This document shows positions 8,063 through 62,650 of a stretch of 64,000 bases of DNA, piece by piece. The stretch is taken from contig CAVSFP010000006.1 in the NCBI GenBank assembly GCA_963727185.1, positions 346,005 through 410,004 of the forward strand. Reading direction: 5' to 3'. The translations under genes were made by a program, and so were the position numbers. Under the pieces are notes generated by a model. It made no database searches and was not told the origin of the DNA. It saw only the letters and a program-made list of their open reading frames with translations. This stretch comes from an uncultured Actinomycetes bacterium. Lineage in GTDB: Bacteria > Actinomycetota > UBA4738 > HRBIN12. Numbering within the stretch: position 1 is the stretch's first letter; every line of letters begins with the position of its first letter.

Positions 8063-8267
8063 GACCTGATGGTATCTGGACCGCATCGTGCATCGGTTGA
8101 TGTTCGATTGAGCAACGTTCTTCTTGAAGCTCGGACATGGGTGCGGGTTCTGCCTGGGAGAAGGTCGTATCGCCGGCCGCGCTGGTGTATCCTCAGAGCA
8201 ACAGCTCGCTGAACGACGTGCAGCCCCAGCACTTGGCTGCGACGTGGGCGGCCCCAGCACTTGGCCG

Positions 8268-9986
8268 ATGGCGCGCGAAGCCAGGGATCTCGTGCAAGCT
8301 CACGAGGACAAGTTCGACGACGTCGAGGCGCTGGCGGCTGCCTCCGCCGACATGATCACCGTCGCCACCGCCGAGGGCGTCTATCGTTACGTCTCTCCCG
8401 CGGCCCGGCGATTGTTCCGTTGGGATCCGGACGAGCTCAGGGGGCGCCACCAGGAGCAGTTCGTACACCCCGACGACGTCCAGGCGATGCGGGCTGCCGG
8501 GGATCTGAGCCTCATCAGCGACGGCTTCTACACCATGACGTACCGGTTCCGGTGCGGCGACGGCGCCTACCGGTGGATCGAAGCGACGTACCACCGGGTC
8601 GAATCCGCCGGAGGGTCCTTCGTCGTCGGATCCGTGCGCGACATCGCGGAGCGCAAAGAGGCGGATGTTCTCCTGCAGCACCGGGCGTCAACCGACCCGC
8701 TCACAGGGGTCGCCAACCGCAACGTGCTGATGGACCGGCTGCAGCACGCGCTCTACCGGCTCGATCGCGCTCCCGGCATCCTGGCGGTGCTGTTCCTGGA
8801 CCTCGACCGGTTCAAGGTCATCAACGATTCCTTGGGGCATCTCGTCGGCGACGGGGTCCTCATGGCGATGGCGGAGCGCCTCCTGCAATTCATCCGTCCA
8901 TCGGACACCCTCGCTCGTCTCGGGGGAGACGAGTTCGTGATCGTCGCGGAGGACCTGACCGATGAGCGTGAGGCGGTCACGTTGGGGGAGCGGATCGCCG
9001 AGGCCGGCCGGCAGCCCTTCCGGATCGGCACGGAGGAATTCGTCTGCACCGTGAGCGTCGGGATAGCAACAACCTCCGACGCCCACCACGTCCCGGACAG
9101 CCTCCTGCAAGAGGCCGACCTCGCGCTGTACCGGGCGAAGGATCGGGGGAGGGACCGGGCGGAGGTCTTCGATGAGGACCTGCGGACGACGGCGGTCGGG
9201 CGGCTCGGCACGGAGCGGATGCTGCGACGCGCGATCGACGAGGAGCGCCTGGGTGTCCGCTACCAGCCGATCATCGACCTGCGCACCGGTCGCGTCGTGA
9301 GCGTCGAGGCGCTCGTGCGGATCCTCGATCCGGAGCTGGGCGTCATAGAGCCCGAGTCGTTCCTGACCGTGGCGGAGGAGACCGGGCTGCTGGCCACCAT
9401 GGACGAATGGGTCTTCGGCCGGGCGCTCGAGGAGGCGACCGGCTGGACCGACCGGTTGGGGGCGACCGATTCCCCCGGCTTGAACCTCAACGTCACGTCG
9501 CGCCGCGTGGCCGACGCGTCGTTCTACGACGCCATCACGGGCGCGCTCGACTCGAGGGGTCTGTCACGCAACAGCATGCAGGTGGAGGTCACCGAGCGCG
9601 TGCTCATGGAGGCGTCCAATTCGGCGTTGGGGGGATTGCGGGCACTGCGCGACGGAGGGATCCGAGTGGGACTGGACGACTTCGGAACGGGGTTCTCGTC
9701 GCTCGCCTACCTGCGGCAGTTCCCGCTGGACTTCGTCAAGATCGACCGGTCCTTCATCCACGGGCTCGATCGCGGGTCGGGAGAGGACGCGATCGTCAAC
9801 GCGATCATCGGTCTCGCCCACGCGTTCGGGCTGGAGGTCATCGCGGAGGGTGTCGAAATCCCCGCCCAGCTCGAGTTCCTCACCGAACTCGGCTGCGACC
9901 AGGCCCAGGGCTTCCTCCTCGCCAAGCCCGGCGCCCCGGACGCCGTGGACGAGCTGGTCCTGGCCGGCGGGTACCGCCAGAACTGA
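8268..9986 (+). CDS. PAS-GGDEF-EAL signalling protein (c-di-GMP turnover)
   Basis: PAS (ITVATAEGVYRYVSPAARRLFRWDPDELRGRHQEQFVHPDD). GGDEF with intact RLGGDEFVIV. EAL domain with EALVR and DDFGTGFSSLAYL. Start taken at ATG 8268; ORF upstream part unconvincing. Confidence 0.85.
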   Translation: MAREARDLVQAHEDKFDDVEALAAASADMITVATAEGVYRYVSPAARRLFRWDPDELRGRHQEQFVHPDDVQAMRAAGDLSLISDGFYTMTYRFRCGDGAYRWIEATYHRVESAGGSFVVGSVRDIAERKEADVLLQHRASTDPLTGVANRNVLMDRLQHALYRLDRAPGILAVLFLDLDRFKVINDSLGHLVGDGVLMAMAERLLQFIRPSDTLARLGGDEFVIVAEDLTDEREAVTLGERIAEAGRQPFRIGTEEFVCTVSVGIATTSDAHHVPDSLLQEADLALYRAKDRGRDRAEVFDEDLRTTAVGRLGTERMLRRAIDEERLGVRYQPIIDLRTGRVVSVEALVRILDPELGVIEPESFLTVAEETGLLATMDEWVFGRALEEATGWTDRLGATDSPGLNLNVTSRRVADASFYDAITGALDSRGLSRNSMQVEVTERVLMEASNSALGGLRALRDGGIRVGLDDFGTGFSSLAYLRQFPLDFVKIDRSFIHGLDRGSGEDAIVNAIIGLAHAFGLEVIAEGVEIPAQLEFLTELGCDQAQGFLLAKPGAPDAVDELVLAGGYRQN

Positions 9987-14024: not shown

Positions 14025-14562
14025 CTAGCTGTGGACGGCGCTCCGTTCGCGAGGCTGGAGCGATGCCGCGAAGCACCAGGCCACGCCCAGGTAGACGCAC
14101 AGGTCGCCCACGCTGACCGCGACGCCGATCGGTTCAGGCACGACGATCGAGTCGCCCAATACCAGCAGCACCGTGGTGTCGTCGGCGAGGTGGTGTTTGC
14201 GATCCGCCGTGGTGCTGGAGATCGGAGAGCGTCGACTCCTGACCCGATCGGACGAGCGCCTGGCGGGCGACCGGCATGCCGTGATTCGCGACGATGACGA
14301 TCGCGTTCAGCAGCAGACCGGTGAATATCAGGATGAAGCCCGGCGCGCGGAAGTTCAGCAACGCGAACGCGATCAGCAACACGAACGATGCCGTCAAGGA
14401 CCAGGATCCCGCGCTCCCCGTGAGCGGCAGGAACTGCAGGACGACGCCCACGATCGCGAGCGACCACCAGCCGAGCGGGATCGACGGGAAGTTCCGGAAG
14501 CTGCCGCCTGCCAACAGACCCACGATCATGGCGCCGAGGATCGTGATGACGATCAGCGTCAC
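14025..14562 (-). pseudogene. DUF5317-family membrane protein, frameshifted (paralog of 62102..62650)
   Basis: GTG start 14560-14562 overlapping larC stop. N-terminal two thirds (VTLIVITILGAMIVGLLAGGSFRNFPS...NAIVIVANHGMPV) aligns with the 62102..62650 protein. After HHGG the homologous C-terminus (KHHLADDTTVLLVLGDSIVVPEPIGVAVSVGDLCVYLG...) continues in the -1 frame to a TAG at 14025-14027. Indel near 14195-14210. Confidence 0.55.
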
Positions 14563-15749
14563 TCGCCGATCGCCTCTCGTGCCAGGCGCGTCGCTTCCTC
14601 GTAGACCTCTCGCGCGGGGACGCCGGCCTCCCGAGCGACCTTGACGCAATCCTCGAACTCGGGCGCAACCGTGACGGCGTTGCCTTCGAGACGACCGATC
14701 TTCACGCGGACCAACCCGTTCCGCGTGGCGACCTCGACCCATTCGCGCTCGAGCGCCTGCTTGTCCACGGCGGACGAACGGATGCCGAGGGTTCCGGTCT
14801 CTCGGAAGAGCACCTGGCGGATCGCTTCCTCCCGCGATTGAGAGGCCAGCACGCTGATCGTGACGGCGGGTCGTCCCTTCTTCATCACGATCGGGGTGAG
14901 CCACGCGTCCTGGGCGCCGGCCGCGAACAGGCGCTCGAGGACGTAGGCGTAGAGCTCGGGGTTGAGGTCGTCGACGTTGGTCTCGAGCACGAGCTCGCTC
15001 CCCTGCACCGTCTCGGAAGCGGCGTTCGCCGAAGGGTCCGCCTCGCCGACCACGACCCGAACCACGTTGGGGAAGTCCAACCGCGCGCTGCCGGCGCCGT
15101 ATCCGACGTGCTCGATCCGCATGTGCGGGATCTCGCCGAACCCCTCCACGAGCGCGGCGAGGATCGCCGCGCCGGTCGGCGTGACGAGCTCGACCGAGAC
15201 GTTGCGCGAATAGATCGGTGCGCCGCGCAGGAGCTCCATCACCGCCGGTGCGGGGATCGGCAGGAGTCCGTGCTCCGTCTTGACCATCCCCATCCCGGTC
15301 GGCACCGCCGAGGCGAACACCCGGTCTACCTTCAACGACGCGAGCGCGAGCGACGTGCCGACGATGTCGACGATGGAGTCGACGGCGCCCACCTCGTGGA
15401 ACGTCACCTGGTCGAGATCGCGACGATGCACCATGGCCTCGGCCTCGGCGAGTCGCCGGAAGATACGCTGCGCCATCGCCTTGGCATCGAGCGGCATCTC
15501 CGCCATGTCGAGAAGCGACCGGACGCTCGCGTAGGTTCGGATCAAGCCGTCGGTCGACGTGCGCACGTTGACCTTGGTCGCGCGGATCCCTCCGCTCTCC
15601 ACCTGTTCGACGTCGAGCTCGAACGACTCGACCGGGAGTCCCTCGAGACCCTTACGGATCGGCTCCAGGTCGGCGCCCGCATCGATCAGGGCGCCGAGGG
15701 CCATGTCGCCGGAGATCCCGGCGATGCAATCGAAGTACAGCAGCCTCAT
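14559..15749 (-). CDS. larC: nickel-pincer cofactor biosynthesis protein LarC (DUF111 nickel insertion protein)
   Basis: MRLLYFDCIAGISGDMALGALIDAGADLEP N-terminus and overall DUF111/LarC architecture. Start at internal ATG; ATGA overlap with larB stop. Confidence 0.8.
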   Translation of the reverse strand: MRLLYFDCIAGISGDMALGALIDAGADLEPIRKGLEGLPVESFELDVEQVESGGIRATKVNVRTSTDGLIRTYASVRSLLDMAEMPLDAKAMAQRIFRRLAEAEAMVHRRDLDQVTFHEVGAVDSIVDIVGTSLALASLKVDRVFASAVPTGMGMVKTEHGLLPIPAPAVMELLRGAPIYSRNVSVELVTPTGAAILAALVEGFGEIPHMRIEHVGYGAGSARLDFPNVVRVVVGEADPSANAASETVQGSELVLETNVDDLNPELYAYVLERLFAAGAQDAWLTPIVMKKGRPAVTISVLASQSREEAIRQVLFRETGTLGIRSSAVDKQALEREWVEVATRNGLVRVKIGRLEGNAVTVAPEFEDCVKVAREAGVPAREVYEEATRLAREAIGE

Positions 15750-16543
15750 CCGTCGGCCCGCGTCGTCGCGCGAACGATCCGATGGGCGACCTGCGCCGCG
15801 CCGAACCCGTTGTCGATGTTCACGACGGCGACCCCTGGGGCGCACGACGCGAGCATCGTCAGCAGGGCAGACAGCCCTTCGAAGGATGCGCCGTACCCCA
15901 CGCTGGTCGGAACGGCGACGATCGGTGTGGAGATGAGCCCCGCCACGACTGACGGGAGCGCGCCTTCCATCCCGGCGACGACGATCACGCAGTCGACCGC
16001 CTCGAGCGCGGCTCGGTGCTCGAGGATCCGGTGGACGCCGGCGACGCCCACGTCGGTGATCCGCTCGACGGTGGCTCCGGTCGCCTCGACGGTGACCGAG
16101 GCTTCCTCAGCCACCGGCAGGTCGGATGTTCCGGCAGCCACGACGGCGACCGTCGCGTCCACCGGCCGGTCGGCGGCCTTCACGACGACCAGCCGAGCCG
16201 TTTCGTGGTACCGCGCACCGGGAACCGCGTCGATCGCGGCCGCCGCCTGCTCAGGCGTCGCCCGCGTGAGCAGAACGGCTCCGTTCGAGCGCGCCGCCAA
16301 TGCGGCCGTGATCTCGCGGATCTGGTCGACGGACTTCCCGGGGCCGTAGATCGCCTCTGGATGACCGGTGCGGAGCTCTCGGTGGTGATCGACGCGCGCA
16401 TCCGTCACCGTCTCGTACGGCAGGATCCGGAGCGCCTCCACGGCGTCTTCGACGGGGGTCGTGCCGGCGGCGACGTCGTCGAGCAGCCGAGCCAGGGTTC
16501 GTTCGTCCACGAGGGGCCCCATCGTATACTCAGGAAGCCCCAC
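15746..16543 (-). CDS. larB: nickel-pincer cofactor biosynthesis protein LarB (PurE-like AIR carboxylase family)
   Basis: PurE-fold motifs (VVAGMEGALPSVVAGL; VAVPTSVGYG) with the LarB-type N-terminal extension. Confidence 0.8.
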   Translation of the reverse strand: MGLPEYTMGPLVDERTLARLLDDVAAGTTPVEDAVEALRILPYETVTDARVDHHRELRTGHPEAIYGPGKSVDQIREITAALAARSNGAVLLTRATPEQAAAAIDAVPGARYHETARLVVVKAADRPVDATVAVVAAGTSDLPVAEEASVTVEATGATVERITDVGVAGVHRILEHRAALEAVDCVIVVAGMEGALPSVVAGLISTPIVAVPTSVGYGASFEGLSALLTMLASCAPGVAVVNIDNGFGAAQVAHRIVRATTRADG

Positions 16544-16558
16544 CGAACCCGCAGGTAG

Positions 16559-17089
16559 ATGCCCGTTTCAGCGACCCGGGAGTCCGGTTTGACCTTCTCG
16601 GACCACACGAACACGCTGTTGGTATTGGTCGCGCTCGGCCTGGGCGCGCTCGGCGTCGTCTTCGCGATATTCGCGACCGGTGGTCGATCTCGTCACCGCG
16701 AGCCCGGCGGACCCATCCGATTGGACGACGCCCTGCGAGGTGTGCTGGACGGTCAGGCCAAGAAGATAGAACGGTTGGAGCAGGCGGTGCGGACGCTCAA
16801 CAAGACGGACAAGCATCAGCAAGGGCAGATCGAGGGCAGCGTTCGCCACGTCGCCCTGTTGCGCTACGACGCGTTCGAGGATGTGGGCGGTCGCCTCTCG
16901 TTCTCATGCGCCATGCTCGACGACCACGGCACCGGCGTGGTACTCACCTCCATCAACGGTCGCCAGGAGACGCGTGTCTACGCGAAGCCGATCACGGACG
17001 GACGCAGCAGCTACAACCTCTCCTCGGAAGAGGACGAGGCCATCCGGCAGGCGCTCGCAGCGCCGGTCGAGGCGGTGGAGGCCCGATGA
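16559..17089 (+). CDS. DUF4446-family protein (N-terminal TM anchor)
   Basis: TM segment LLVLVALGLGALGVVFAIFA then conserved LLRYDAFEDVGGRLSFSCAMLDDHGTGVVLTSINGRQETRVYAKPI. Recalled as DUF4446; family assignment from memory. Confidence 0.55.
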   Translation: MPVSATRESGLTFSDHTNTLLVLVALGLGALGVVFAIFATGGRSRHREPGGPIRLDDALRGVLDGQAKKIERLEQAVRTLNKTDKHQQGQIEGSVRHVALLRYDAFEDVGGRLSFSCAMLDDHGTGVVLTSINGRQETRVYAKPITDGRSSYNLSSEEDEAIRQALAAPVEAVEAR

Positions 17090-17619
17090 TCTTCAAGAAG
17101 GACGAGGCCGACGAGATCCAGCAGGACGACGTGGAAGCGGCGATGCCACCCAGGCCGGAATCAGGAGAACGCCCACAGAAGGGAAAGGAGACGCAGATGG
17201 CGGAGAACGGTGAGGTCACGGTCGTCGGCGTCGGAGCGCGACTGGATGGGAACGTCGTTTCCGCAGGGAGCCTGCGGATCGACGGGCAGGTGAAGGGCCA
17301 GATCAATGCCGACGGCGACGTCACGCTCTCACCGCAGAGCCAGGTCGAAGCCGACATCCGCGCGCAGAACGTCACGGTGGCCGGTCGCTTCAAGGGCAAT
17401 ATCGCCGTGAAGGGAAAGGCGCACCTCGCCCGGGGTGGACGCGTCGACGGCAACATCACGTCGAAGTCGCTCGTCGTCGAAGAGGGCGGCATCTTCCACG
17501 GGCAGAGCATCATGGACGGGGCCGCCACGGGCGCCTCGTCCGGTCAGGCCGGCTCGCAGGCACAGCCCGCGAACGCCGCCGCGACGACCGAGAAGACGGA
17601 GCAAGTGAAGGTGCCGTAG
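17086..17619 (+). CDS. bactofilin family cytoskeletal protein
   Basis: Start ATG 17086 (ATGA overlap with preceding gene). Repeated beta-helical G-rich repeats (GNVVSAGSLRIDGQVKGQINADGDVTL...GRFKGNIAVKGKAHLARGGRVDGNITSKSLVVEEGGIFHGQS) typical of bactofilin/DUF583. Confidence 0.75.
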   Translation: MIFKKDEADEIQQDDVEAAMPPRPESGERPQKGKETQMAENGEVTVVGVGARLDGNVVSAGSLRIDGQVKGQINADGDVTLSPQSQVEADIRAQNVTVAGRFKGNIAVKGKAHLARGGRVDGNITSKSLVVEEGGIFHGQSIMDGAATGASSGQAGSQAQPANAAATTEKTEQVKVP

Positions 17620-18891
17620 ATGCTCGACATCAAAGCGATCCGAGAAGACCCAGACCCGTTCCGGAAAGGCCTTGCCCGCCGCAACCTCGCCGATGCGGTC
17701 GACGCGCTGCTCGCCGCGGACGAGCGCCGTCGCGCGTTGATCGGCCGCGTCGAGGCGCTGCGGACCGCACAGAACCAGGCGTCGAAAGCGATCGGTGGCG
17801 CGCATGGCGACGAGAAACAACGGCTGATCGACGAGGTCAGCAAGGTCTCCACCGAGCTCAAGGCGCTCGAGCCCGAGCTGGAGGTCGCGGAGGCGGAGCT
17901 CACCGATCTCCTGGCGAAGACCCCCAACATCCCGCACGACAGCGCGCCCGACGGCTTCACCGATGAGGATGCCGTGGAGGTTCGCCTACACGGTGAACCC
18001 AGGACGTTCGAGTTCGAGCCTCGGGACCACGTTGCGCTGGGCGAGCTGCTCGGCGTGATGGACGTCGAACGCGCGGTCCGCACGTCGGGCTCGCGGTTCG
18101 TGTACCTGATGGGCGACATCGTGCTGCTGCAGTTCGCGCTGGTGCGGCACGCGATCGACATCTTGGTGGCGAAGGGATTCACGCCGGTGATACCGCCGGT
18201 GCTGGTCCGCGAGGAGGCGATGTACGGCACGGGGTTCCTGCCTGCGGACGAGGCGCAGCTGTACGTGACGCGCGAGGACGACCTGTACCTCGTGGGCACG
18301 AGCGAGGTGCCGCTCGCTGCGCTGCACATGACCGAGATCGAAGATCAGGCCGACCTGCCGCTCCGCTACGCCGGCTACTCCACGTGCTTCCGTCGCGAGG
18401 CCGGTACCTACGGTAAGGACATGGGCGGCATGTTCCGCGTGCACCAGTTCGACAAGGTGGAGATGTTCTCGTTCACGACGCCCGAGACCTCATGGGACGA
18501 GCACGAGATGCTGGTCTCGATCGAAGAGGAGATCGTCGGCAACCTCGAGATCCCGTATCGGGTCGTGAACGTCGCTGCGGGAGACCTGGGCGGCTCGGCC
18601 GCGAAGAAGTACGACATCGAGGGCTGGCTGCCGGCGCAGCAGCGCTATCGCGAGCTGACCTCGTGCTCGAACTGCACCGACTACCAGGCGCGGCGCCTGC
18701 AGACCCGCGTCCGGCGGCCCGACGGCAAGGTCGAGCCGCTGCACACGCTGAACGGCACCGCGACCGCGGTCGGCCGCTCCCTGATCGCGATCATGGAGAA
18801 CCATCAGCAGGCCGACGGGTCGGTCGAGTTGCCGGCGAAGCTGCACCCGTACCTGCCGGAGTCCGTCCGGGTGTTGCGTCCCAAGGACTGA
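17620..18891 (+). CDS. serS: seryl-tRNA synthetase
   Basis: N-terminal coiled-coil tRNA-binding arm and class II core motifs (FRREAGTYGKDMGGMFRVHQFDKVEMF; GSAAKKYDIEGWLP). Confidence 0.9.
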   Translation: MLDIKAIREDPDPFRKGLARRNLADAVDALLAADERRRALIGRVEALRTAQNQASKAIGGAHGDEKQRLIDEVSKVSTELKALEPELEVAEAELTDLLAKTPNIPHDSAPDGFTDEDAVEVRLHGEPRTFEFEPRDHVALGELLGVMDVERAVRTSGSRFVYLMGDIVLLQFALVRHAIDILVAKGFTPVIPPVLVREEAMYGTGFLPADEAQLYVTREDDLYLVGTSEVPLAALHMTEIEDQADLPLRYAGYSTCFRREAGTYGKDMGGMFRVHQFDKVEMFSFTTPETSWDEHEMLVSIEEEIVGNLEIPYRVVNVAAGDLGGSAAKKYDIEGWLPAQQRYRELTSCSNCTDYQARRLQTRVRRPDGKVEPLHTLNGTATAVGRSLIAIMENHQQADGSVELPAKLHPYLPESVRVLRPKD

Positions 18892-18898
18892 TCCTGGG

Positions 18899-21800
18899 CT
18901 AGCGTTCGCGTCGCTCTGCTGTTCCCTCGCTCGCGGACTCGGTGCGTTCCCGCTCCGCGGTGATGTCGACCCACATCCCGTGCAGCAGCGGGCGGCCGTG
19001 GTCGTCGTGGCCGAGGTTCCCCCAGCTGCGGAGCCACAGGACCCTTCCATCACGTGCGACGATGCGGAACTCGGACCGCCAGGGCTCGCCGCGGCGGATG
19101 CAGCGCTCTGCCAACGCCAGCGTCGCCGCGAGGTCGCCCGGGTAGACGAGCCTGGAGAAGAACCGAGGTTCGGCGATGAGCTCCTCCGACGTGTACCCGA
19201 GTAGCTGCTCCACCTGTGGCGCGATGTAGATCGGACGCCAGTCGGTCGGATCCTCCACGCCGTATGTCCACGCGACCCCCGGCATCTGTTCGACGAGCGA
19301 TCGCAGGACGGCCGCCTCCTCACGCTCGCGCTCTTCCCGTTCCTTGCGGTCGGTGACGTCCATCATGATGCCCTGGAGCCGGCGGGGACGACCGTCGTCT
19401 TCACGCTCCACCGTTCGACCTTCGAGGTGCATCCATACGATCCGACCGTCGTCCGCGATCATCCGGTAGTCGATGTCCCAGGGGTGGCCCTCCATGATGC
19501 GTTGGCTGCGCTCCCGGGCCGATGCGAGGTCGTCGGGGTGCACCATGTCCAGCATGCTCCATGGGTCCGCGTAGAAGCGCGCGGCCGGATACCCGAGGAT
19601 GTCCTGGACCTGCGGGCTCATGTACCGGAGTCGGAACCGCTGCTCGAGCGCCAGGTCGAATTCGAGGACGAGGAAGACCACGGGCCCTTCCTCGGCGATC
19701 TCACGGTAGCGCTGCGCGGTCTGGGCGGCGTATTCCTCCGCCCGATGGCGTTCCGTCATGTCCATCAGAACGCCCTGGAACAACTGCGGGCGTCCCAGTT
19801 GATCGCGCGAGAGCAGCGTGGCGTGGTCGAACACGACGACGAGCCGGCCGTCCTTGGCGAACACCCGGTACTCCTCGCTGAACGGCTCACCGGTGGTCTC
19901 GCTGCGCGCGGATGCAGCCAGGACGCGGTCACGGTCGTGCGGATGGAGCCGTTCGATCCAGATGTCGCTGCTGTTCCATTCCTCGGCCGAATAGCCGAGC
20001 AGCTTCTCGATGCGAGGGCTGGTGTACATCCCGGAAGGGTTCTCGCGATCGTGGACCTGCCGCATGTACACGACCGCGGGCAGATCCTCGACGAGTCTGC
20101 GATAGCGTTCGCGCGTCTGCCGGAGCTCGGCTTCGATGCGTTTGCGCTCGCCGATCTCGAGCGCCATCATCTCGTTCGCGTCCTCGAGCTCGGCCGTCCG
20201 CTCCAGCACACGGAACTCGAGGTCGTCGTTCGACTGACGGAGTCGTTCCTCCAGATCCTTCTGTGCCGTGACATCCAGCATGACTCCCTGCCACGTGGAG
20301 ACGTTCCCGGCCTCGTCGCGGACGAGTCGAGCCTGGTCGCGCACCCATACGACCCTGCCGTCGCTCGCGATCAACCGATACTCCTGGCTCCACGGCTCGC
20401 CCGTCTCGTTGTGGAGGTCGTGCGCGGCCAGCTGGATCTCTCTGTCGTCGGGGTGGAGCAGTTCGATCCAGATGTCCGGCTGGTCCAACCATTCGGCTCG
20501 CGAATAGCCGAACAAGGCCTCCACCTGCGGGCTCACGAAGAGTGTGCGTCGTTCGTCGTCCGGGTCCATCTCATAGACGACGGCAGGGACCTGCTCGACG
20601 AGCATCCGATACCGGGCGTCGGACGCACGGAGGTCGTCCTCGGCGCGTTTGCGATCCGTCAGGTCCTGGATCAGTCCCTGCCAATGGATCGGGTTCCCGT
20701 CGACGTCGCGGACCAGCACGGCCGCCTCTCGCACGAACACGACCGCGCCGTCGCGGCGGAACAACCGGAAGTCGCAGAAGAAGGAATCGCGGTGCCGAAC
20801 CGCATCGACCCATGCGTTCCCGACGCGTTCGACATCGTCCGGATGCATGATCCGGAAGAACAACGTTGGGTCGTCCTGGAACTCCTCGGGTCGATACCCG
20901 AGCATCCCCGTCGATTGTGGGCTGACGTAGTAGCAGATCGGCGCTTCTTCATGGGAGTCGATGAACACCACGGCGGGCACCTGCTCGACGAGCGCGCGGT
21001 GTCGCAGCTCGGACTCACGCACCATCACGTCGGCCCGCTTGGCTTCAGTGATGTCTTGGATCAGTCCTTGCCAGAACAACGGCTTACCGTCCTCGGAGCG
21101 CACGAGGCGCGCGGTGTCGTGGAACCACGAGACCCGGCCGTCACGGTGGACCGAGCGATACTCGACCGAGAAGGGCGCACGCCTTCCCACCGCGGACAGC
21201 CACTCATCACGCACACGCTCGCGGTCCTCGGGATGGGTGGCCTTCAGCCAGAGCCCTCTGTCGGCCATCCAATCCTCGACGGTGTAGCCCGTGAGCTCGA
21301 GCACCTGAGGACTCACGTACACGGGGGCCGGGTCGGCCTCGTTCGTATCGATGTACACGATCCCCGGCACCTGCTCCACGAGGGCGCGATACCGGGCCTC
21401 CGACCGGAGTCGTTCGTCCTCGGCTCGATGTTGCTCCGTCACATCGAGCATCACGCCTTGCCAGAACAACGGGGTGCCGTCGGTTGCATGCACGAGCCGA
21501 GCGACATCTCTCACCCAGAGGACGTGTCCGTCGCGGTGCACGACGCGATACTCGAACGAGACCTCCTCGGCGCCGTCGAGATGGAGCGGCCAATCGAGGT
21601 GCATGATGGCCCGATCGTCGGGATGGATCACCCGGAGCCACAGCTCGGGGTCGGAGATCCAGTCCTCCGGTGGATAGCCCGTGATCGTCTCGATCTGCCG
21701 ACTGACATAGATCGTGACCGGGTTCTCCTCATGTGTGTCGATGTAGACGACGGCGGGAAGCTGCTCCACCAACGACTGATAGCGGGTCTCCGCATGGACG

Positions 21801-22258
21801 AGCGGCTCGATCTCGTCGTCGTCCTTATCGAGCGGAGTGACCACACCGAACCACATGGCCGGCCTGTCGCCGGTGGCCGGAACCAGACTGGTCTGATCGC
21901 GCACCCAGCGCGTCGACCCGTCCGGAAGGAGGATCCGGTACTCCTCGTCCCACGATCCGGTGTCCTTGGCCGCATCTATGAGCATCCGGCCTCTATCCTC
22001 GGGATGGATATGCCGGATCTGTGCGGCGACGTCGCCCATCATCTCGTCGGGCGTCAGGCCCAGGATGGCCTCGCTCTGCGGGCTCACGTAGAGGTAGCGC
22101 TGATCGGTATGCCCGAACGGCAGGACGTACGTGACCGCTGGCACCGCCTCGATCACCTGCCGGTACAGATCCTCGGGCATCCCCGAGGAAGCGTCAGGCA
22201 TCCCGGAAGCCCCCGCGCTCATCCCCTCAGGGTAGACCCGCGGGGCGTGCCCCACCAC
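18899..22258 (-). CDS. 1119-aa protein composed of about 8 tandem PAS/PAC domains with no recognisable output domain
   Basis: Repeating roughly 125-aa units (RYRxLVEQxPAVVYxD...YVSPQxExLxGY..EW...W...HPDDRExV...W......PxxxEYRxxxxDGRVVWVxDxAxLVRDExGxPxxxQGVMLDVTxxKxAEExLR). No kinase, GGDEF, HTH or other effector domain. Translationally adjacent (6 bp) to upstream fdxA. Start codon choice among several N-terminal ATGs uncertain. Confidence 0.8.
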   Translation of the reverse strand: MVGHAPRVYPEGMSAGASGMPDASSGMPEDLYRQVIEAVPAVTYVLPFGHTDQRYLYVSPQSEAILGLTPDEMMGDVAAQIRHIHPEDRGRMLIDAAKDTGSWDEEYRILLPDGSTRWVRDQTSLVPATGDRPAMWFGVVTPLDKDDDEIEPLVHAETRYQSLVEQLPAVVYIDTHEENPVTIYVSRQIETITGYPPEDWISDPELWLRVIHPDDRAIMHLDWPLHLDGAEEVSFEYRVVHRDGHVLWVRDVARLVHATDGTPLFWQGVMLDVTEQHRAEDERLRSEARYRALVEQVPGIVYIDTNEADPAPVYVSPQVLELTGYTVEDWMADRGLWLKATHPEDRERVRDEWLSAVGRRAPFSVEYRSVHRDGRVSWFHDTARLVRSEDGKPLFWQGLIQDITEAKRADVMVRESELRHRALVEQVPAVVFIDSHEEAPICYYVSPQSTGMLGYRPEEFQDDPTLFFRIMHPDDVERVGNAWVDAVRHRDSFFCDFRLFRRDGAVVFVREAAVLVRDVDGNPIHWQGLIQDLTDRKRAEDDLRASDARYRMLVEQVPAVVYEMDPDDERRTLFVSPQVEALFGYSRAEWLDQPDIWIELLHPDDREIQLAAHDLHNETGEPWSQEYRLIASDGRVVWVRDQARLVRDEAGNVSTWQGVMLDVTAQKDLEERLRQSNDDLEFRVLERTAELEDANEMMALEIGERKRIEAELRQTRERYRRLVEDLPAVVYMRQVHDRENPSGMYTSPRIEKLLGYSAEEWNSSDIWIERLHPHDRDRVLAASARSETTGEPFSEEYRVFAKDGRLVVVFDHATLLSRDQLGRPQLFQGVLMDMTERHRAEEYAAQTAQRYREIAEEGPVVFLVLEFDLALEQRFRLRYMSPQVQDILGYPAARFYADPWSMLDMVHPDDLASARERSQRIMEGHPWDIDYRMIADDGRIVWMHLEGRTVEREDDGRPRRLQGIMMDVTDRKEREEREREEAAVLRSLVEQMPGVAWTYGVEDPTDWRPIYIAPQVEQLLGYTSEELIAEPRFFSRLVYPGDLAATLALAERCIRRGEPWRSEFRIVARDGRVLWLRSWGNLGHDDHGRPLLHGMWVDITAERERTESASEGTAERRER

Positions 22259-22264
22259 CGTCGC

Positions 22265-22600
22265 TCAGGCTTCGATGACGACGGGGAGTGCGGCGACCAG
22301 CGGATGGTCGACGTGCGAATCCTCTGCCTGGGCAGCACCTCCGGGGTTCCCGAGGTTGGTGACGTTGGGCCCGAAGAACTCGCGCTCGATCTGCTCGTAC
22401 CCGCGCCACTCGTCCGGAAGATCGTCTCGACTGAAGATGGCTGTCACCGGACACACCGGCTCGCAGGCAGCGCAGTCCACGCACTCGTCAGGATTGATGT
22501 AGCCCTTGCGGAGCCCGTCGTAGATGCAATCGACGGGGCATTCGTCCACGCACCCTCGATCGTGGACGTCCACACACGGCTCAGCGATCACGTAGGCCAT
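22265..22600 (-). CDS. fdxA: 7Fe ferredoxin (3Fe-4S + 4Fe-4S), FdxA-type
   Basis: MAYVIAEPCVDVHDRGCVDECPVDCIY...CVDCAACEPVCPVTAIF, classic FdxA cysteine pattern. Confidence 0.85.
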   Translation of the reverse strand: MAYVIAEPCVDVHDRGCVDECPVDCIYDGLRKGYINPDECVDCAACEPVCPVTAIFSRDDLPDEWRGYEQIEREFFGPNVTNLGNPGGAAQAEDSHVDHPLVAALPVVIEA

Positions 22601-22748
22601 CTGGTGCGCTCCTTTCCGCGTTTGCCGCCTCCGGACCGAACGGTCCGATGACGATGCTCACGTTACGGAGCGCCCCTCCAAGCCTTGCCCAAGAGAAGGT
22701 GAGACCCAGGCAATGAAATCGATGGCTCGGACCCCGTAGGCTTCGGTC

Positions 22749-22838
22749 GGGAGGATGGCCGAGCGGACGAAGGCGACGGTCTTGAAAACCGTTGGTCCCG
22801 CAAGGGGCCCGTGGGTTCGAATCCCACTCCTCCCGCCG
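22749..22838 (+). tRNA. tRNA-Ser (anticodon TGA), class II
   Basis: Acceptor GGGAGGA/TCCTCCC-G. Anticodon arm ACGGT-CTTGAAA-ACCGT. Long variable arm GGTCCCGCAAGGGGCCC. T-arm GTGGGTTCGAATCCCAC. CCA not encoded. Confidence 0.8.
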
Positions 22839-55282: not shown

Positions 55283-55286
<4 letters not shown>

Positions 55287-56938
55287 GAGCGGGATTCTAC
55301 CGAGGAGCGCCAGACCCGTTCCAGGGCCGAGACCAGGCCCTCGATCGTGTGCGGGCGGGCGACGGCCGAGACCCGCAGACCGTGCTCCCGAGCCTCGCGA
55401 GCCGTGACAGGACCGATGCTCACGACCTTCGGGTTCCCGCGGACGACCCCCATCGCTCCGACGAACCCGCGGACCGTCGATGCGCTGGTGAACGTGATGG
55501 CGTCGACGCCGCCGTCTCGGAGCGCGGTTCGCGCGTCGGTCGGGAGCGAGCGCGCCAGGCGCGTCCGGTACGCATCGACGCGGAGCGGGGACCAGCCCTT
55601 CGCCGCCAGCGCGTCCTCGAGTCCGCCGGGTGCGATGTCGGCTCGCGCGCAGAGGACGCCTCCGTCGCCGCGCGGGAACGCGCGGGCCAACCCTGCAGTC
55701 GTGAACGTCGCCGGCATGAGGTCGGGCGGCCGCCGGGCCCACGCGCGGAACGCCGCGCTCGTCCCATCGCCGATCGCCGCTACCTTCGCACGGACGGCCG
55801 CTGGGGAATCCAGCCTCGACGCCAGCATCTCCACCGTCGCGCGGCTGGTGAGCGTGATCCACGCGAACCGGCCCGCCGAGAGGTCGCGCAGCGCCGCGGT
55901 CAGTGCGGCGGATCGCGCCGGAACGATCTCGATCGTCGGCGCCACGATGGACGTGGCTCCCAGGCGGCGCAGCCGACGGACGAGCTCGACGGACTGGTCG
56001 GCCGGTCTCGTCACCAGGACGGTCCGGCCTGCGAGTGGCTTCACCGGTCGTCGTCCAGCGCCTCGAGGAATCTCTTCGGCTCCCTCGGCGATGAGATCCT
56101 TCGTCGCGAGCGCCGCGGCTCCCTCGGGGGAGTCGGAGACGACCTCCACGCGCGCCACCCGCGACCCATCGGGGGCGATGACGACGGCGAGCATCTCGAT
56201 GCGGCCTCCGTGAACGGTGGCCCGTGCGCCGAGCGGGAGCGCACAGCTGCCGCCGATCCGCCACATCAACGAGCGCTCCGCCTCGAGCGACATCCGGCTT
56301 TCGGCATGGTCGAGCGGCGCCAGGGCGGTGAGCGTCGCGAGATCGTCCTCGCGCGCCTGGAGCGCGAGCGCGCCCTGTCCGGGTGCGGGGACCATCACGT
56401 CCATCCCGAGGGGAGCGGAATGGGGCGCGGTGATGCCGAGACGCGTCAAGCCTGCGAGCGCGAGCACCGCGGCGTCGACGACGCCGTCGGTCACCTTCCG
56501 CAGTCGCGTGTCCACGTTCCCGCGAAGGTCTTCGACGGTCACCCCGGGGAACGCCCGGAGGAGTTGTGCTCGCCGGCGGATGCTCGACGTCCCGATCACG
56601 GCCCCGGTGCGGAGCGACGCCTCCCGCAGCACCAGGACATCGGCGGCGTCGAGTCGGGGAGGAACGGCCGCGATGATCAGGCCCTCGTCGTCCTCGGCCG
56701 GGAGGTCCTTGGCCGAATGGACGGCGACGTCGATCTCATCGCGTTCGAGCGCGTCGAGGATCGTGTCGACGAAGAGGCCCTTCAGGCCGGCCGGCGCCTC
56801 GCCGGATGGCGCCCCCTCGTCGCCCGATGTCGACATCGGAACGATCTCGGACTCCACGCCGTGCTCCGACAGGCGGCGGCGGACCTCGTCCGCCTGAGCG
56901 AGGGCGAGCGGAGAGCGGCGTGTCCCGGTCAGCGTCAC
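55283..56938 (-). CDS. hemCD: bifunctional hydroxymethylbilane synthase / uroporphyrinogen-III synthase (HemC-HemD fusion)
   Basis: GTG start overlapping hemA stop. HemC part (TRRSPLALAQADEV...AVHSAKDLP...GTSSIRRRAQL...GGSCALPLGA) continues without stop into HemD part (GRTVLVTRPADQSVELVRRLRRLGATSIVAPTIEIVP...ITFTSASTVRGF). Confidence 0.85.
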
Positions 56939-58210
56939 TCGGCGTCGGGGTCGAGCCGCAGGAGCTCCATCAGCAGCTTCGCGTGCAGGTCGTCGGCTCC
57001 GGGCTCGGATCGCTCCTTCAGCTCGACGATCGGGTCGTGCAAGAGCTTCGCGGCCACCCCACGTGCGACCGCTTCGACCGCCTCGCGCTCCCGAGGCGTC
57101 AGGTCGGAGAGACGACTTGCATAGCGGGCGAGCTCCGAGCGGACGGTCTCCTCGCCCCGTGCCTGCACGGCTCGGATCAACGGGGCGAGCGCGTCGGAGC
57201 GGCGCCGCACCACCCACCGCCGGACCTCCTCGGCCACGATCTCGTGCGCTCGAGCGATGTCGTCGGCGGTGGCGTCGCCCCCCGCCATGAGCCGTTCGCG
57301 GATGGCGCGGATGTCGATCGAGCCGCACGCCATCCAGCGCCACGACGCCGGGGTCGATGTCGCGAGGGACGGCCAGGTCCAACAGGACGAGCGGAGCGGT
57401 ACGGGTCCGTTCGAGTGCCGCACCGACGGTCTCGGCGTCGATCACCGCCCCGGCGGCGCCGGTCGCCGAGACCACCAGGTCCGCGTCCGCGATGGCCGAT
57501 CGGAGATGGTCGAGACCCGCGAAGTCGTCGCCAGCCCGCTCGGCCAACGCCCGCGCGTGCTCGAGCGAGCGGTTCAGCACCCGGACGCTGCCGACGCCAC
57601 GAGCATGCAGATGTTGCACCGCGAGTCCGGCCATCCGGCCGGCGCCGACCACGACCACGTGACGGTCGCGGAGATCGCCGAGCTCCTCCTCTGCCAGGTC
57701 GGCCCCGAGCGCAACGAACGCGTCGGGTGCAGCGCCGAGCGAGGTTTCGGCGCGCGCCCGTCGGCCCGCCCGCGCGGCCGCATGGAACAGGGAGCGCATC
57801 GCGGGGCCTGAGGCTCCTTCCGCCGCGGCCGTTCGCAGCGCCTCGCGCACCTGGGCGTGGATCTGCGTCTCGCCGATCACCATCGAATCCAGCCCCGCGG
57901 CCACCGCGAACAGGTGGTCGGCCGCGTCCTGCTCCCAATGGGAGTAGAGCGGCTCGGCCAGCTCCTCGGGAGCAACTCTGCGCGTCTCGGTCAGCACGCG
58001 TTTCAACGCCAGGAACCCGGCGTGGTACGAGGGGACGTTCGCGGTGATCTCGACTCGGTTGCAGGTGGACAGGATGACCGCCTCGTCGACGGCATCCATG
58101 TCGAGCGCGTGGCGGTAGGCCTTGACGAGCTCGTCGTCGGCGAACGAGAGCCGCTCCAGCAGCTCGATCGGTGCGCGTCGGAAGCTGATCCCGAGGGTGA
58201 GGATGGGCAT
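56935..58210 (-). pseudogene. hemA: glutamyl-tRNA reductase, apparent single frameshift
   Basis: N-terminal and NADPH domains in ORF 55283..58210 frame (MPILTLGISFRRAPIELLERL...STCNRVEI...VVVVGAGRMAG...LAVPRDIDPGVVALDGVRL) then dimerisation domain in ORF 56935..57423 frame (IDIRAIRERLMAGGDATADDIARAHEIV...KLLHDPIVELKERS). Junction about 57308-57330. Confidence 0.75.
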
Positions 58211-60539: not shown

Positions 60540-62102
60540 CTATCCCGTCGCCGCGGCCTCATCCGGCGCGTGGATCGGCAGCCGAACCGTGAACGTGCTG
60601 CCCTCGCCGTGCACGCTCTGCACCGAGACGGTCCCTCCGAGGTGATGGACGAGGTCGCGGACCATCGACAGTCCGAGTCCGGCACCGCTGAACCGGCGGG
60701 TGGACGACGAGTCCACCTGATAGAAGCGATCGAAGATCCGCTCTATCTGCTCCGGCTCGATCCCGATCCCGCAGTCGCGGACGGAGAACACCAGCTCGCC
60801 GCCATCGGCGCGGGCGTCCAGCTCGCATGCCGATCCTTCGGGCGAGTACTTCAAGGCATTGTCCAACAGGTTGGTGATGACGCGCGACAGGAGTTGCCGG
60901 TCGGTGTGGAGCACCGGGATGTCGTCGGGGACGTGGGCCACGATCCGTTCGGCGTCGTTGCCCAGGCCTTCGATCGTCTCGCGGCACAGGTCTTCGAACA
61001 GGACGCGGCCGACCGAGATGGACAACTGGTCGTTCTCCAGGCGCGAGGTGGTCAGTAGGTTCTCGACCAGTCCGATCAAGCGGTTCCCCTGGCGCTCCAT
61101 CCGTTCCAGGAACTCCTCTCGCAGGAGTGCGTCGTCGGCGAACTGGGGCAGCCGAAGGGTCTTCGCGTACCCGGTCATCGCCGTGATCGGGGTCCGCAGC
61201 TCGTGCGAGACGACCGCGACGAACTCGCCCTTCATGCGGTTCAGCTCTCGGAGCTGATCGACCGTCGCGCTCTCCTTGCGGAGGAGGTGCTCTAATCGTT
61301 CGGCCTGCGCCGTCAGGAGCTCGTTCTGCTCCGCGAGGCGGTCGGCCATCATGCGGCTCTGGAAGTACATCTGACGGGCGAACACGACCGGCGCGAGGAA
61401 GACGACGACCGACCAGGCGCCCTCCTCGATGAAGAACCGCGCGATGACTACGCCGAAGAGAGCCAGACCGATGTACGAGGCGAGGAACTCGACCGGCCGT
61501 GAACCGTGCATCTTCTTGAGGACCTGCCGGACCGTGAGCCCATGTTGGAGCGAGGCGTGCAGGGCCACGAGGATCGCGTTGATCGCGTAGGCCGTGATCG
61601 TGGCGGCCAGGGCGGCGGGGACGAGGATCCACCACGGGGAGGTCACGCTCGCGAGCTGATGGAACACCAGGCTCGCCGCGATGATCGCGAGTCCCATCTG
61701 GGACCTGTTCCACATCGCCCGCAGGAACGGGATCTCTCGGCGGAACTCGTGGATATCCGACGAGCCGACGATGGCGATCATCCCGGCGACCGGCGGGCTG
61801 TAGAGCATGGCGACCCCGATCATGATCGGGAAGGACAGCGACAGTTCGATGTCCTCCCATGCCGGGATCGGGATGAGGTCGACCGCCATGATGCACACGA
61901 CGAAGAAGAGCGCTCCCCATCCGACCGTCGTCCAGTCCACGAGGGTCGCTTGCCAACAGAGCCAGCAGGCCAACGGGATGATCAGGACCGCTTCGAGCGC
62001 GGTGACCGAGGCGCTCCCCGCGGCGACGTTCCCGACCGAGGGGGATCGCTTCTCGAGGGCCTCGGGGCCGCCGATGTCCTCGATGGGGTCACGCACGTCC
62101 AT
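60540..62102 (-). CDS. membrane sensor histidine kinase with about 7-TM N-terminal sensing module
   Basis: Start at internal ATG 62100-62102 (MDVRDPIEDIG...), ATGA overlap with upstream DUF5317 gene. 7 hydrophobic helices, then HisKA (VVSHELRTPITAM) and HATPase (NLLDNALKYS; RDCGIGIEPEQIERIFDRFYQ; GAGLGLSMV). No cognate regulator adjacent. Confidence 0.8.
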   Translation of the reverse strand: MDVRDPIEDIGGPEALEKRSPSVGNVAAGSASVTALEAVLIIPLACWLCWQATLVDWTTVGWGALFFVVCIMAVDLIPIPAWEDIELSLSFPIMIGVAMLYSPPVAGMIAIVGSSDIHEFRREIPFLRAMWNRSQMGLAIIAASLVFHQLASVTSPWWILVPAALAATITAYAINAILVALHASLQHGLTVRQVLKKMHGSRPVEFLASYIGLALFGVVIARFFIEEGAWSVVVFLAPVVFARQMYFQSRMMADRLAEQNELLTAQAERLEHLLRKESATVDQLRELNRMKGEFVAVVSHELRTPITAMTGYAKTLRLPQFADDALLREEFLERMERQGNRLIGLVENLLTTSRLENDQLSISVGRVLFEDLCRETIEGLGNDAERIVAHVPDDIPVLHTDRQLLSRVITNLLDNALKYSPEGSACELDARADGGELVFSVRDCGIGIEPEQIERIFDRFYQVDSSSTRRFSGAGLGLSMVRDLVHHLGGTVSVQSVHGEGSTFTVRLPIHAPDEAAATG

Positions 62103-62650
62103 CAGGCGGTGGCCTTGCTGCTGACGGTGCGAGGGCGGCGTCGCGGCATCGAGAACACGATGAAGCATGCGGCGCCCAACTGCACGCACACGTCCCCGAT
62201 CGAGATGGCCTGGTTCAACGGCTGGCCCAGCGGGATCACATCACCCAGCGGGAGGAGGTTCGTCGTGCCATCGGCCAGATGGTGCTTCGCGCCTCCGTTC
62301 GCGATCAACTCGTTCAGGGTCGCCGATTGATCGGAACCTTCCAGGGCGTTGCGGGTGACCGGCATCCCCTGGTTCGCGACGATGACGATCGCGTTCAAGG
62401 CGAGGCCGATCAGGATCAGGACGACCCCTGGGGCCCGGATGTTGACGATCGCGAACGCGATCAGGGCGGCGAACGACGCGTAGAGGAGGATGGTTCCGGG
62501 CGTCCCCCCGACGGGGATGAACTGCAGCACAACACCCGCCAGGGCCAGCCAGGCACTGCGGAGCGTCGTCGAGGGGAAGTCGCGGAACGTGCCGCCGGCC
62601 AACAGGCCGGCGACGGACGCCGCGACAACAGTGAGCATGATCAGCCGCAT
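62102..62650 (-). CDS. DUF5317-family membrane protein (intact paralog)
   Basis: MRLIMLTVVAASVAGLLAGGTFRDFPSTTLRSAWLALAGVVLQFIPVGG...LNAIVIVANQGMPV...AKHHLADGTTNLLPLGDVIPLG. Homologous to the frameshifted gene at 14025..14562. DUF5317 assignment from memory. Confidence 0.6.
   Translation of the reverse strand: MRLIMLTVVAASVAGLLAGGTFRDFPSTTLRSAWLALAGVVLQFIPVGGTPGTILLYASFAALIAFAIVNIRAPGVVLILIGLALNAIVIVANQGMPVTRNALEGSDQSATLNELIANGGAKHHLADGTTNLLPLGDVIPLGQPLNQAISIGDVCVQLGAACFIVFSMPRRRPRTVSSKATA

Follow-up and report, generated by a model that had tools for sequence, protein, structure and literature searches.

PAS domains can signal without any attached enzyme. Animal PERIOD, Neurospora VIVID and the bacterial short LOV proteins contain PAS domains, have no enzymatic or DNA-binding output and signal via changed protein contacts. 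In tandem PAS sensors such as FixL (PAS-A/PAS-B), the Brucella LOV-PAS-HK protein and DosP, by contrast, one to three PAS units precede DHp/HATPase, GGDEF or EAL domains. Here we describe a gene at 18899..22222 on the minus strand of a 64,000-nucleotide (nt) stretch of DNA from an uncultured Actinomycetes bacterium (contig CAVSFP010000006.1; G+C ~67%; hereafter the window), the product of which consists of eight PAS units. Akin to the tandem PAS sensors, it is built of PAS_3/S-box units with DITERKRAEE-type helices as linkers, but neither DHp/HATPase nor GGDEF or EAL follows the array. PERIOD, VIVID and the short LOV proteins have one or two PAS domains with known cofactors or partners, as opposed to eight domains here, and the likeness is limited to the PAS fold.

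PAS-only proteins, and signaling helices between PAS domains, are already known kinds; the present family is undescribed in the searchable literature, where our searches on PAS-only proteins found nothing on it, and databases give it the generic label 'PAS domain S-box protein'. On balance, and with confidence slightly better than even, we regard the protein as a cytoplasmic, dimeric PAS-only signal adaptor that acts via protein contacts and represents a conserved family of uncultured soil and sediment Actinomycetota. The results also correct an attractive but unsupported link of the sensor with a ferredoxin, and they provide a usable definition of the family by its core motif, start site and genomic position.

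Eight PAS units and no output domain

The longest open reading frame (ORF) at this position, 18899..22258 on the minus strand with a GTG codon at 22258, was confirmed in the window. A preliminary description of this DNA had reported its product as an 1119-residue protein; with the start that we consider most likely (ATG 22222, discussed below), the product has 1107 residues. The gene and its parts are as follows.

18899..22222, minus strand: gene of the PAS-only protein, 1107 amino acids from ATG 22222, stop codon 18899..18901 (basis: Pfam, NCBIfam, junction alignment, homologue N-termini, AlphaFold2)
21785..22168, minus strand: PAS1 (residues 19-146), the least conserved unit
20615..21784, minus strand: PAS2, PAS3 and PAS4 (residues 147-536), the variable N-terminal array
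20261..20614, minus strand: PAS5 (residues 537-654), the most conserved unit of the family
20108..20260, minus strand: signaling-helix-like coiled coil (residues 655-705), with R675 and T676 central
19712..20107, minus strand: PAS6 (residues 706-837), second half of the invariant core
18902..19711, minus strand: PAS7 and PAS8 (residues 838-1107), the C-terminal array

In Pfam the protein matched solely families of the PAS clan, with PAS_3 (PF08447) in eight stretches (543.9 bits against a cut-off of 25.6; E 2.9e-167), and the NCBIfam model TIGR00229 (sensory_box) likewise matched eight stretches (411.7 bits). No kinase, GGDEF, EAL, helix-turn-helix or STAS model of either collection scored above its cut-off. 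The HisKA/DHp and HATPase_c domains of a sensor histidine kinase were absent from the Pfam and NCBIfam matches, and the structure model contains no extra domain. NCBIfam equivalog models for kinases, cyclic di-GMP (c-di-GMP) proteins and NifL-type proteins all remained far under cut-off. Nor does the protein resemble a PAS-bearing c-di-GMP enzyme of the DosP or Tlr1612 type, given neither a GGDEF nor an EAL match and a score of 370 bits for NF053781 against a cut-off of 1600, or a partner-switching regulator of the STAS or RsbW type, for which Pfam revealed neither a STAS nor an anti-sigma kinase domain.

An AlphaFold2 model, computed as a monomer on 33 orthologues (mean predicted local distance difference test, pLDDT, 78.8), contains eight PAS folds, each a five-stranded antiparallel sheet with flanking helices and a pLDDT mostly of 75-94. 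The units are connected by helices of ~22 residues and bordered by terminal tails of ~18 residues each, with no further domain; one long helical stretch spans residues 652-713 and is broken by a low-confidence segment. When compared with the PDB by Foldseek, the model retrieved tandem-PAS structures exclusively. Superposition was best on FixL PAS-A/PAS-B (8js5; target-normalised TM-score 0.8, root-mean-square deviation 3.2-3.5 A), the dimer of which has a similar tandem-PAS geometry; FixL PAS-A is also among the best sequence matches. The architecture given in the preliminary description is thus borne out by Pfam, NCBIfam, AlphaFold2 and Foldseek: there are eight consecutive PAS/PAC modules, the profile search and the structure model show PAS folds only, and the linkers, described as TERKRAEE-like, have the form D[ILMV]T-x-x-[KH]RAE. 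Exact-sequence look-ups found neither the GTG-start nor the ATG-start version of the protein on record. A plus-strand ORF at 19427..22651 is most likely a shadow ORF of G+C-rich DNA, judging from the strong PAS reading on the minus strand.

The eight units share 26-50% pairwise identity, which indicates that the duplications are old. For the same reason the self-matches of the PAS-gene DNA are short, 60-80% identical and spaced by ~390 nt. Tandem Repeats Finder reported nothing in the DNA of the gene, so the earlier statement that the DNA itself carries tandem repetition does not hold.

A family with an invariant PAS5-signaling helix-PAS6 core

A scan of species-representative genomes located 450 loci with a relative of the PAS-only protein. 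The best 80 were kept and, together with six loci obtained by exact-protein look-ups, brought the number of fetched loci to 86. These best 80 loci of 450 all derive from metagenome-assembled genomes, nearly all of them labelled Actinomycetota. A large protein search returned many PAS-only proteins of ~1100 and ~980 amino acids, ranging from 86% to ~41% identity and all from uncultured Actinomycetota; among the full-length matches listed at no less than 41% identity to the query, only PAS families were present.

The number of PAS copies varies from 4 to 9 among family members, and the variation is distributed around a fixed point. Every complete member retains PAS5 and PAS6 as a pair with ~40 additional residues in between, preceded by one to five units and followed by one or two, and in all members the C-terminus stops cleanly past the last PAS. 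In a 33-sequence alignment, on which the residue conservation and core statistics given here are based, 40 of the 118 columns of PAS5 are invariant. Between members that are ~43% identical overall, identity reaches 74% in PAS5, 61% in the linker and 52% in PAS6, compared with 28-41% in the other units. Intact full-length ORFs are present in at least 80 species-level genomes and the conservation of PAS5 equals that of the neighbouring SerS, which points to purifying selection.

Proteins in which this core is fused to an output domain were sought with PAS5-helix-PAS6 alone as the query, by a word-indexed and then an exhaustive search. The former returned mostly fragments of 500 amino acids or less. 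In the latter, a contiguous core at 44-58% identity was confined to PAS-only proteins of 487-1111 amino acids, and the ten core-containing representatives have PAS domains only. Larger multi-PAS proteins match the core one PAS at a time, with the exception of two giants that show weak contiguous matches (28-32% identity). The exhaustive search therefore yielded no output-domain fusion of the core at family-level identity, and the lack of a catalytic or DNA-binding output is family-wide.

The segment between PAS5 and PAS6 resembles the signaling helix (S-helix) defined by Anantharaman, Balaji and Aravind in 2006 (PMC1592074), a heptad coiled coil whose central 'ERT' occupies positions c, d and e. 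Among the contexts described for S-helices is the space separating two PAS domains, and the helices function as dimeric switches (PMC1592074). In every family member such a helix of ~40-50 residues sits between these two signalling domains, with R675 at d, T676 at e and N665 at a; the other a and d positions are hydrophobic (L661, L668, V672, L679, A682 and M686). R675 and T676 are present in 31 of the 33 sequences and N665 in 27. The segment departs from the described S-helices (PMC1592074) in its variable 'ERT' glutamate and in having no catalytic domain downstream. By analogy with tandem-PAS sensors, we infer that the PAS-only protein forms a parallel homodimer via the signaling helix and the inter-PAS helices.

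Candidate cofactors were compared with the conserved residues. The window protein has three cysteines, none of them shared by more than 42% of the family; with no conserved cysteine, the LOV, PYP and NreB types of PAS chemistry, which depend on a cofactor-binding cysteine, were rejected. Heme binding of the DosP type was considered on account of an apparent likeness between the 'RHNREGG' of DosP and the 'LHNETGE' of PAS5. It was ruled out by a profile alignment to E. coli DosP, which sets the proximal His77 of F-alpha opposite the invariant D593 and the distal Met95 opposite the invariant W611; the heme ligands of DosP are thus absent from PAS5. By sequence, PAS5 is matched best by PAS domains from structural genomics and by FixL PAS-A, which binds no heme, not by PAS-B. 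H601 and H604 (94% and 91% conserved) lie near the position of the proximal histidine of FixL PAS-B, at the C-terminal end of F-alpha, though PAS5 aligns with PAS-A; FixL-type heme ligation in PAS5 may occur. The heme-binding and redox-buffering roles suggested in the preliminary description find little footing in a family with no conserved cysteine and with an invariant Asp and Trp in place of the DosP ligands.

Since no output domain exists anywhere in the family, protein-protein contacts are a reasonable mode of action. This part of the earlier proposal stands; its named partner, a kinase at 60540..62102, does not, as this is a MASE9 membrane kinase without PAS, 38 kb away, that nothing ties to the PAS gene. 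In a simplified view, the strongly constrained PAS5 would bind a ligand or partner, and the signaling helix would relay the resulting change to PAS6-8. The output may then consist of altered contacts with other proteins, for example through pairing of PAS domains with those of kinases or c-di-GMP enzymes from other loci, while the variable N-terminal units would add or tune inputs. Dimerisation, the direction of the signal and an output through contacts are proposed here on the precedent of established signaling helices and tandem-PAS sensors. If this mechanism is true, the family represents a clean natural case of signalling by PAS domains alone, and its directional core and evolving copy number would be useful for studying how PAS arrays integrate inputs.

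Start site, promoter signature and flanking genes

The following features adjoin the PAS gene.

22229..22234, minus strand: -10-like hexamer TACCCT, 6 nt upstream of ATG 22222, conserved in six loci
22265..22600, minus strand: fdxA, 7Fe-type ferredoxin (NF045480, FdxA_Actino equivalog, 151.7 bits against a cut-off of 125)
22749..22837, plus strand: tRNA-Ser(UGA), divergent from the PAS gene (ARAGORN, Rfam)
17620..18891, plus strand: serS, convergent, its stop codon 7 nt from that of the PAS gene (Pfam)

An alignment of the junction in the six fdxA-containing loci reveals single-base insertions and deletions between GTG 22258 and the conserved ATG 22222, and this stretch is therefore non-coding. 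The N-termini of homologues begin at a methionine equivalent to ATG 22222, most likely the true start. Counted from there, the gap between fdxA and the PAS gene is 42 nt; the distance of 6 bp reported previously rests on GTG 22258.

The hexamer ahead of the start belongs to a signature (in-frame TANNNT-N6-8-ATG/GTG) found at the N-terminus in 55 of 77 related loci, as compared with ~0.9 expected from shuffled sequences, and it is kept both with and without fdxA upstream. Mycobacterial -10 motifs are centred 7-12 bp ahead of transcription starts (PMC3898074), with which the hexamer of the PAS gene agrees. From these sequence features, the PAS gene appears to have a promoter of its own that yields a leaderless mRNA; transcripts of fdxA may also read through into it, though this is not needed. 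Scans of the window for consensus sigma-70 promoters and intrinsic terminators gave nothing relevant.

The identity of fdxA itself is as first described, since its product passes the FdxA_Actino cut-off and has the fitting cysteine pattern (C9, C17, C21 and C40-x2-C43-x2-C46-x3-C50-P). In both score and cysteine pattern it is an actinobacterial FdxA (NF045480), located outside the conserved context of the PAS family. The preliminary description had proposed that conservation of the gene pair be checked in relatives. Of 79 informative loci, just 5 (L004, L006, L007, L011 and L012) have FdxA on the same strand and <400 nt upstream, and their PAS proteins are 81-93% identical to that of the window; FdxA is missing at 75-81% identity (L001, L005, L009, L010 and L013) and in all more distant relatives. 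Homologues of FdxA are common in other contexts, as in the L067 contig, where two paralogues lie ~60 kb from the PAS gene. Because the adjacency is confined to close relatives, it is a recent arrival in a variable slot beside the tRNA gene: fdxA is a recent, lineage-specific neighbour and not a conserved partner of the PAS gene. The 5' leader of fdxA contains a perfect hairpin (CGGACC-GTTC-GGTCCG, 22632..22647, minus strand). A hairpin is kept at this position in five of the six fdxA-containing loci, with some bases changed, and has no Rfam match.

The lasting context of the PAS gene is a different one: most relatives carry it as a lone gene flanked by a divergent tRNA-Ser(UGA) and a convergent serS. 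The latter is found <3 kb downstream in 81 of the 82 loci with enough sequence, with a stop-to-stop distance of -17 to +21 nt in ~57 of the 82. The terminator scan detected no terminator-like site between the two genes in the window, and the 3' ends of their transcripts probably overlap. On the other side, tRNA-Ser(UGA) lies <350 nt from the first PAS unit in 31 of 81 loci (gap ~0.1 kb) and, in 23 more, 0.35-7 kb upstream with unrelated genes between. The gap between tRNA gene and PAS gene (22601..22748 in the window) is a variable slot, in which fdxA occurs only in the closest relatives. In L012 and L013, partial tRNA copies adjoin the PAS gene, which suggests insertions at the tRNA gene. Rfam identified tRNAs only.

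Genes upstream of the PAS gene are patchy. Among the clusters of upstream ORFs, ferrochelatase recurs in 9 loci and a kinase and response-regulator pair in 5-7, mostly on the strand opposite to the PAS gene. Beyond tRNA-Ser, and divergent from the PAS gene, a full heme-biosynthesis cluster (hemE, hemH, hemY, hemQ) is located in L002 and L005; ferrochelatase was seen at the same flank in L010, L014, L017, L023-L025 and L061; and a heme-copper oxidase operon takes the place of the heme cluster in the window, L001 and L004. On the downstream side, DUF4446, bactofilin and serS abut head to tail (16559..18891, plus strand), with bactofilin ending at 17619 and serS beginning at 17620. Where a related locus extends this far, serS is nearly always preceded by DUF4446-bactofilin; for a tRNA synthetase gene, such an operon is unusual. 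Beside the DUF4446 gene lie genes for LarC (Ni_insertion) and a LarB-like AIR carboxylase (14559..16543, minus strand), of the nickel-pincer cofactor pathway, which are kept in many relatives.

Alternative explanations and other genes of the window

The reading as a PAS-only adaptor has to be weighed against its own weak points and against three other explanations. Several observations count against it: the glutamate of 'ERT' occurs in 9 of the 33 sequences; the AlphaFold2 model is a monomer with a low predicted template modelling score (pTM 0.31) and the low-confidence break in its long helix; clustering of the upstream ORFs gave no recurrent gene pointing to a partner; and, with no terminator-like site found between fdxA and the PAS gene by the intrinsic terminator scan of the window, co-transcription is possible in the fdxA-bearing lineage. 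The last point would also serve the view, put forward in the preliminary description, that the PAS concatemer works as a redox sensor or scaffold in functional partnership with FdxA, with which it would share a transcript, and reads the redox state of FdxA or an Fe-S or heme signal. The same-strand position of fdxA 42 nt upstream, in the window and five close relatives, fits such a role, as do the nearby heme-copper oxidase genes (window, L001, L004) or heme-biosynthesis genes (L002, L005 and others) and the conservation of H601 and H604 on the predicted F-alpha of PAS5. However, the adjacency does not extend below 81% identity, FdxA paralogues are located elsewhere in relatives, and the PAS gene retains its own promoter signature. 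No cysteine is conserved, D593 and W611 occupy the places of the DosP residues, and PAS5 is closer to the non-heme PAS-A of FixL than to the heme-binding PAS-B. Coupling to the ferredoxin is, in our judgement, improbable.

It is about equally doubtful that the gene owes its fixed position to a functional tie with serine-tRNA metabolism or with the DUF4446-bactofilin-serS operon. Mutual antisense control by convergent read-through would be one possibility, and regulation of SerS or bactofilin by the PAS protein another. Such a tie would account for the nearly universal convergent serS, for the closely spaced stop codons with no terminator-like site between them, and for a tRNA-Ser(UGA) that adjoins the PAS gene in 31 loci and lies not far off in another 23. 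However, convergent genes do not share a transcript, and tight packing is common in compact G+C-rich genomes, so that the synteny may be mere stable ancestral gene order; to our knowledge, nothing connects PAS proteins to SerS. A bolder form of the adaptor reading would make the family a distinct class of PAS-only transducer, in which an expandable N-terminal 'antenna' of one to five units feeds a near-invariant PAS5-signaling helix-PAS6 switch with no enzymatic output, acting on a conserved housekeeping partner that is possibly linked to serS, tRNA-Ser or bactofilin; we consider this unlikely, if marginally less so than either tie just discussed. Least plausible of all is gene decay, in which a multi-PAS histidine kinase or c-di-GMP enzyme has lost its catalytic end and left a functionless remnant. 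The nearest matches outside the family are indeed multi-PAS kinases and GGDEF proteins (34-38% identity), but decay is at odds with the full-length ORFs that at least 80 species-level genomes keep intact at a fixed position, with the strongly uneven conservation that peaks at 74% in PAS5, with the conserved promoter and start, and with the clean C-terminal end in all members.

Some further genes of the window are recorded here. The sole other PAS-containing ORF encodes a PAS-GGDEF-EAL protein (8124..9986, plus strand); an 88% identical copy of this gene lies ~5 kb from the PAS gene in a single relative, L009. The MASE9-HisKA-HATPase membrane kinase occupies 60540..62189 on the minus strand and is preceded by a DUF5317 gene (62102..62650); near the PAS locus of relatives, larC too is followed by a DUF5317 gene. 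Finally, an uninterrupted ORF of 975 amino acids (55283..58210, minus strand) holds HemA (GlutR_N and Shikimate_DH), HemC (Porphobil_deam) and HemD (HEM4) in one frame; three heme-pathway enzymes are apparently fused here, unless a stop or frameshift was missed.

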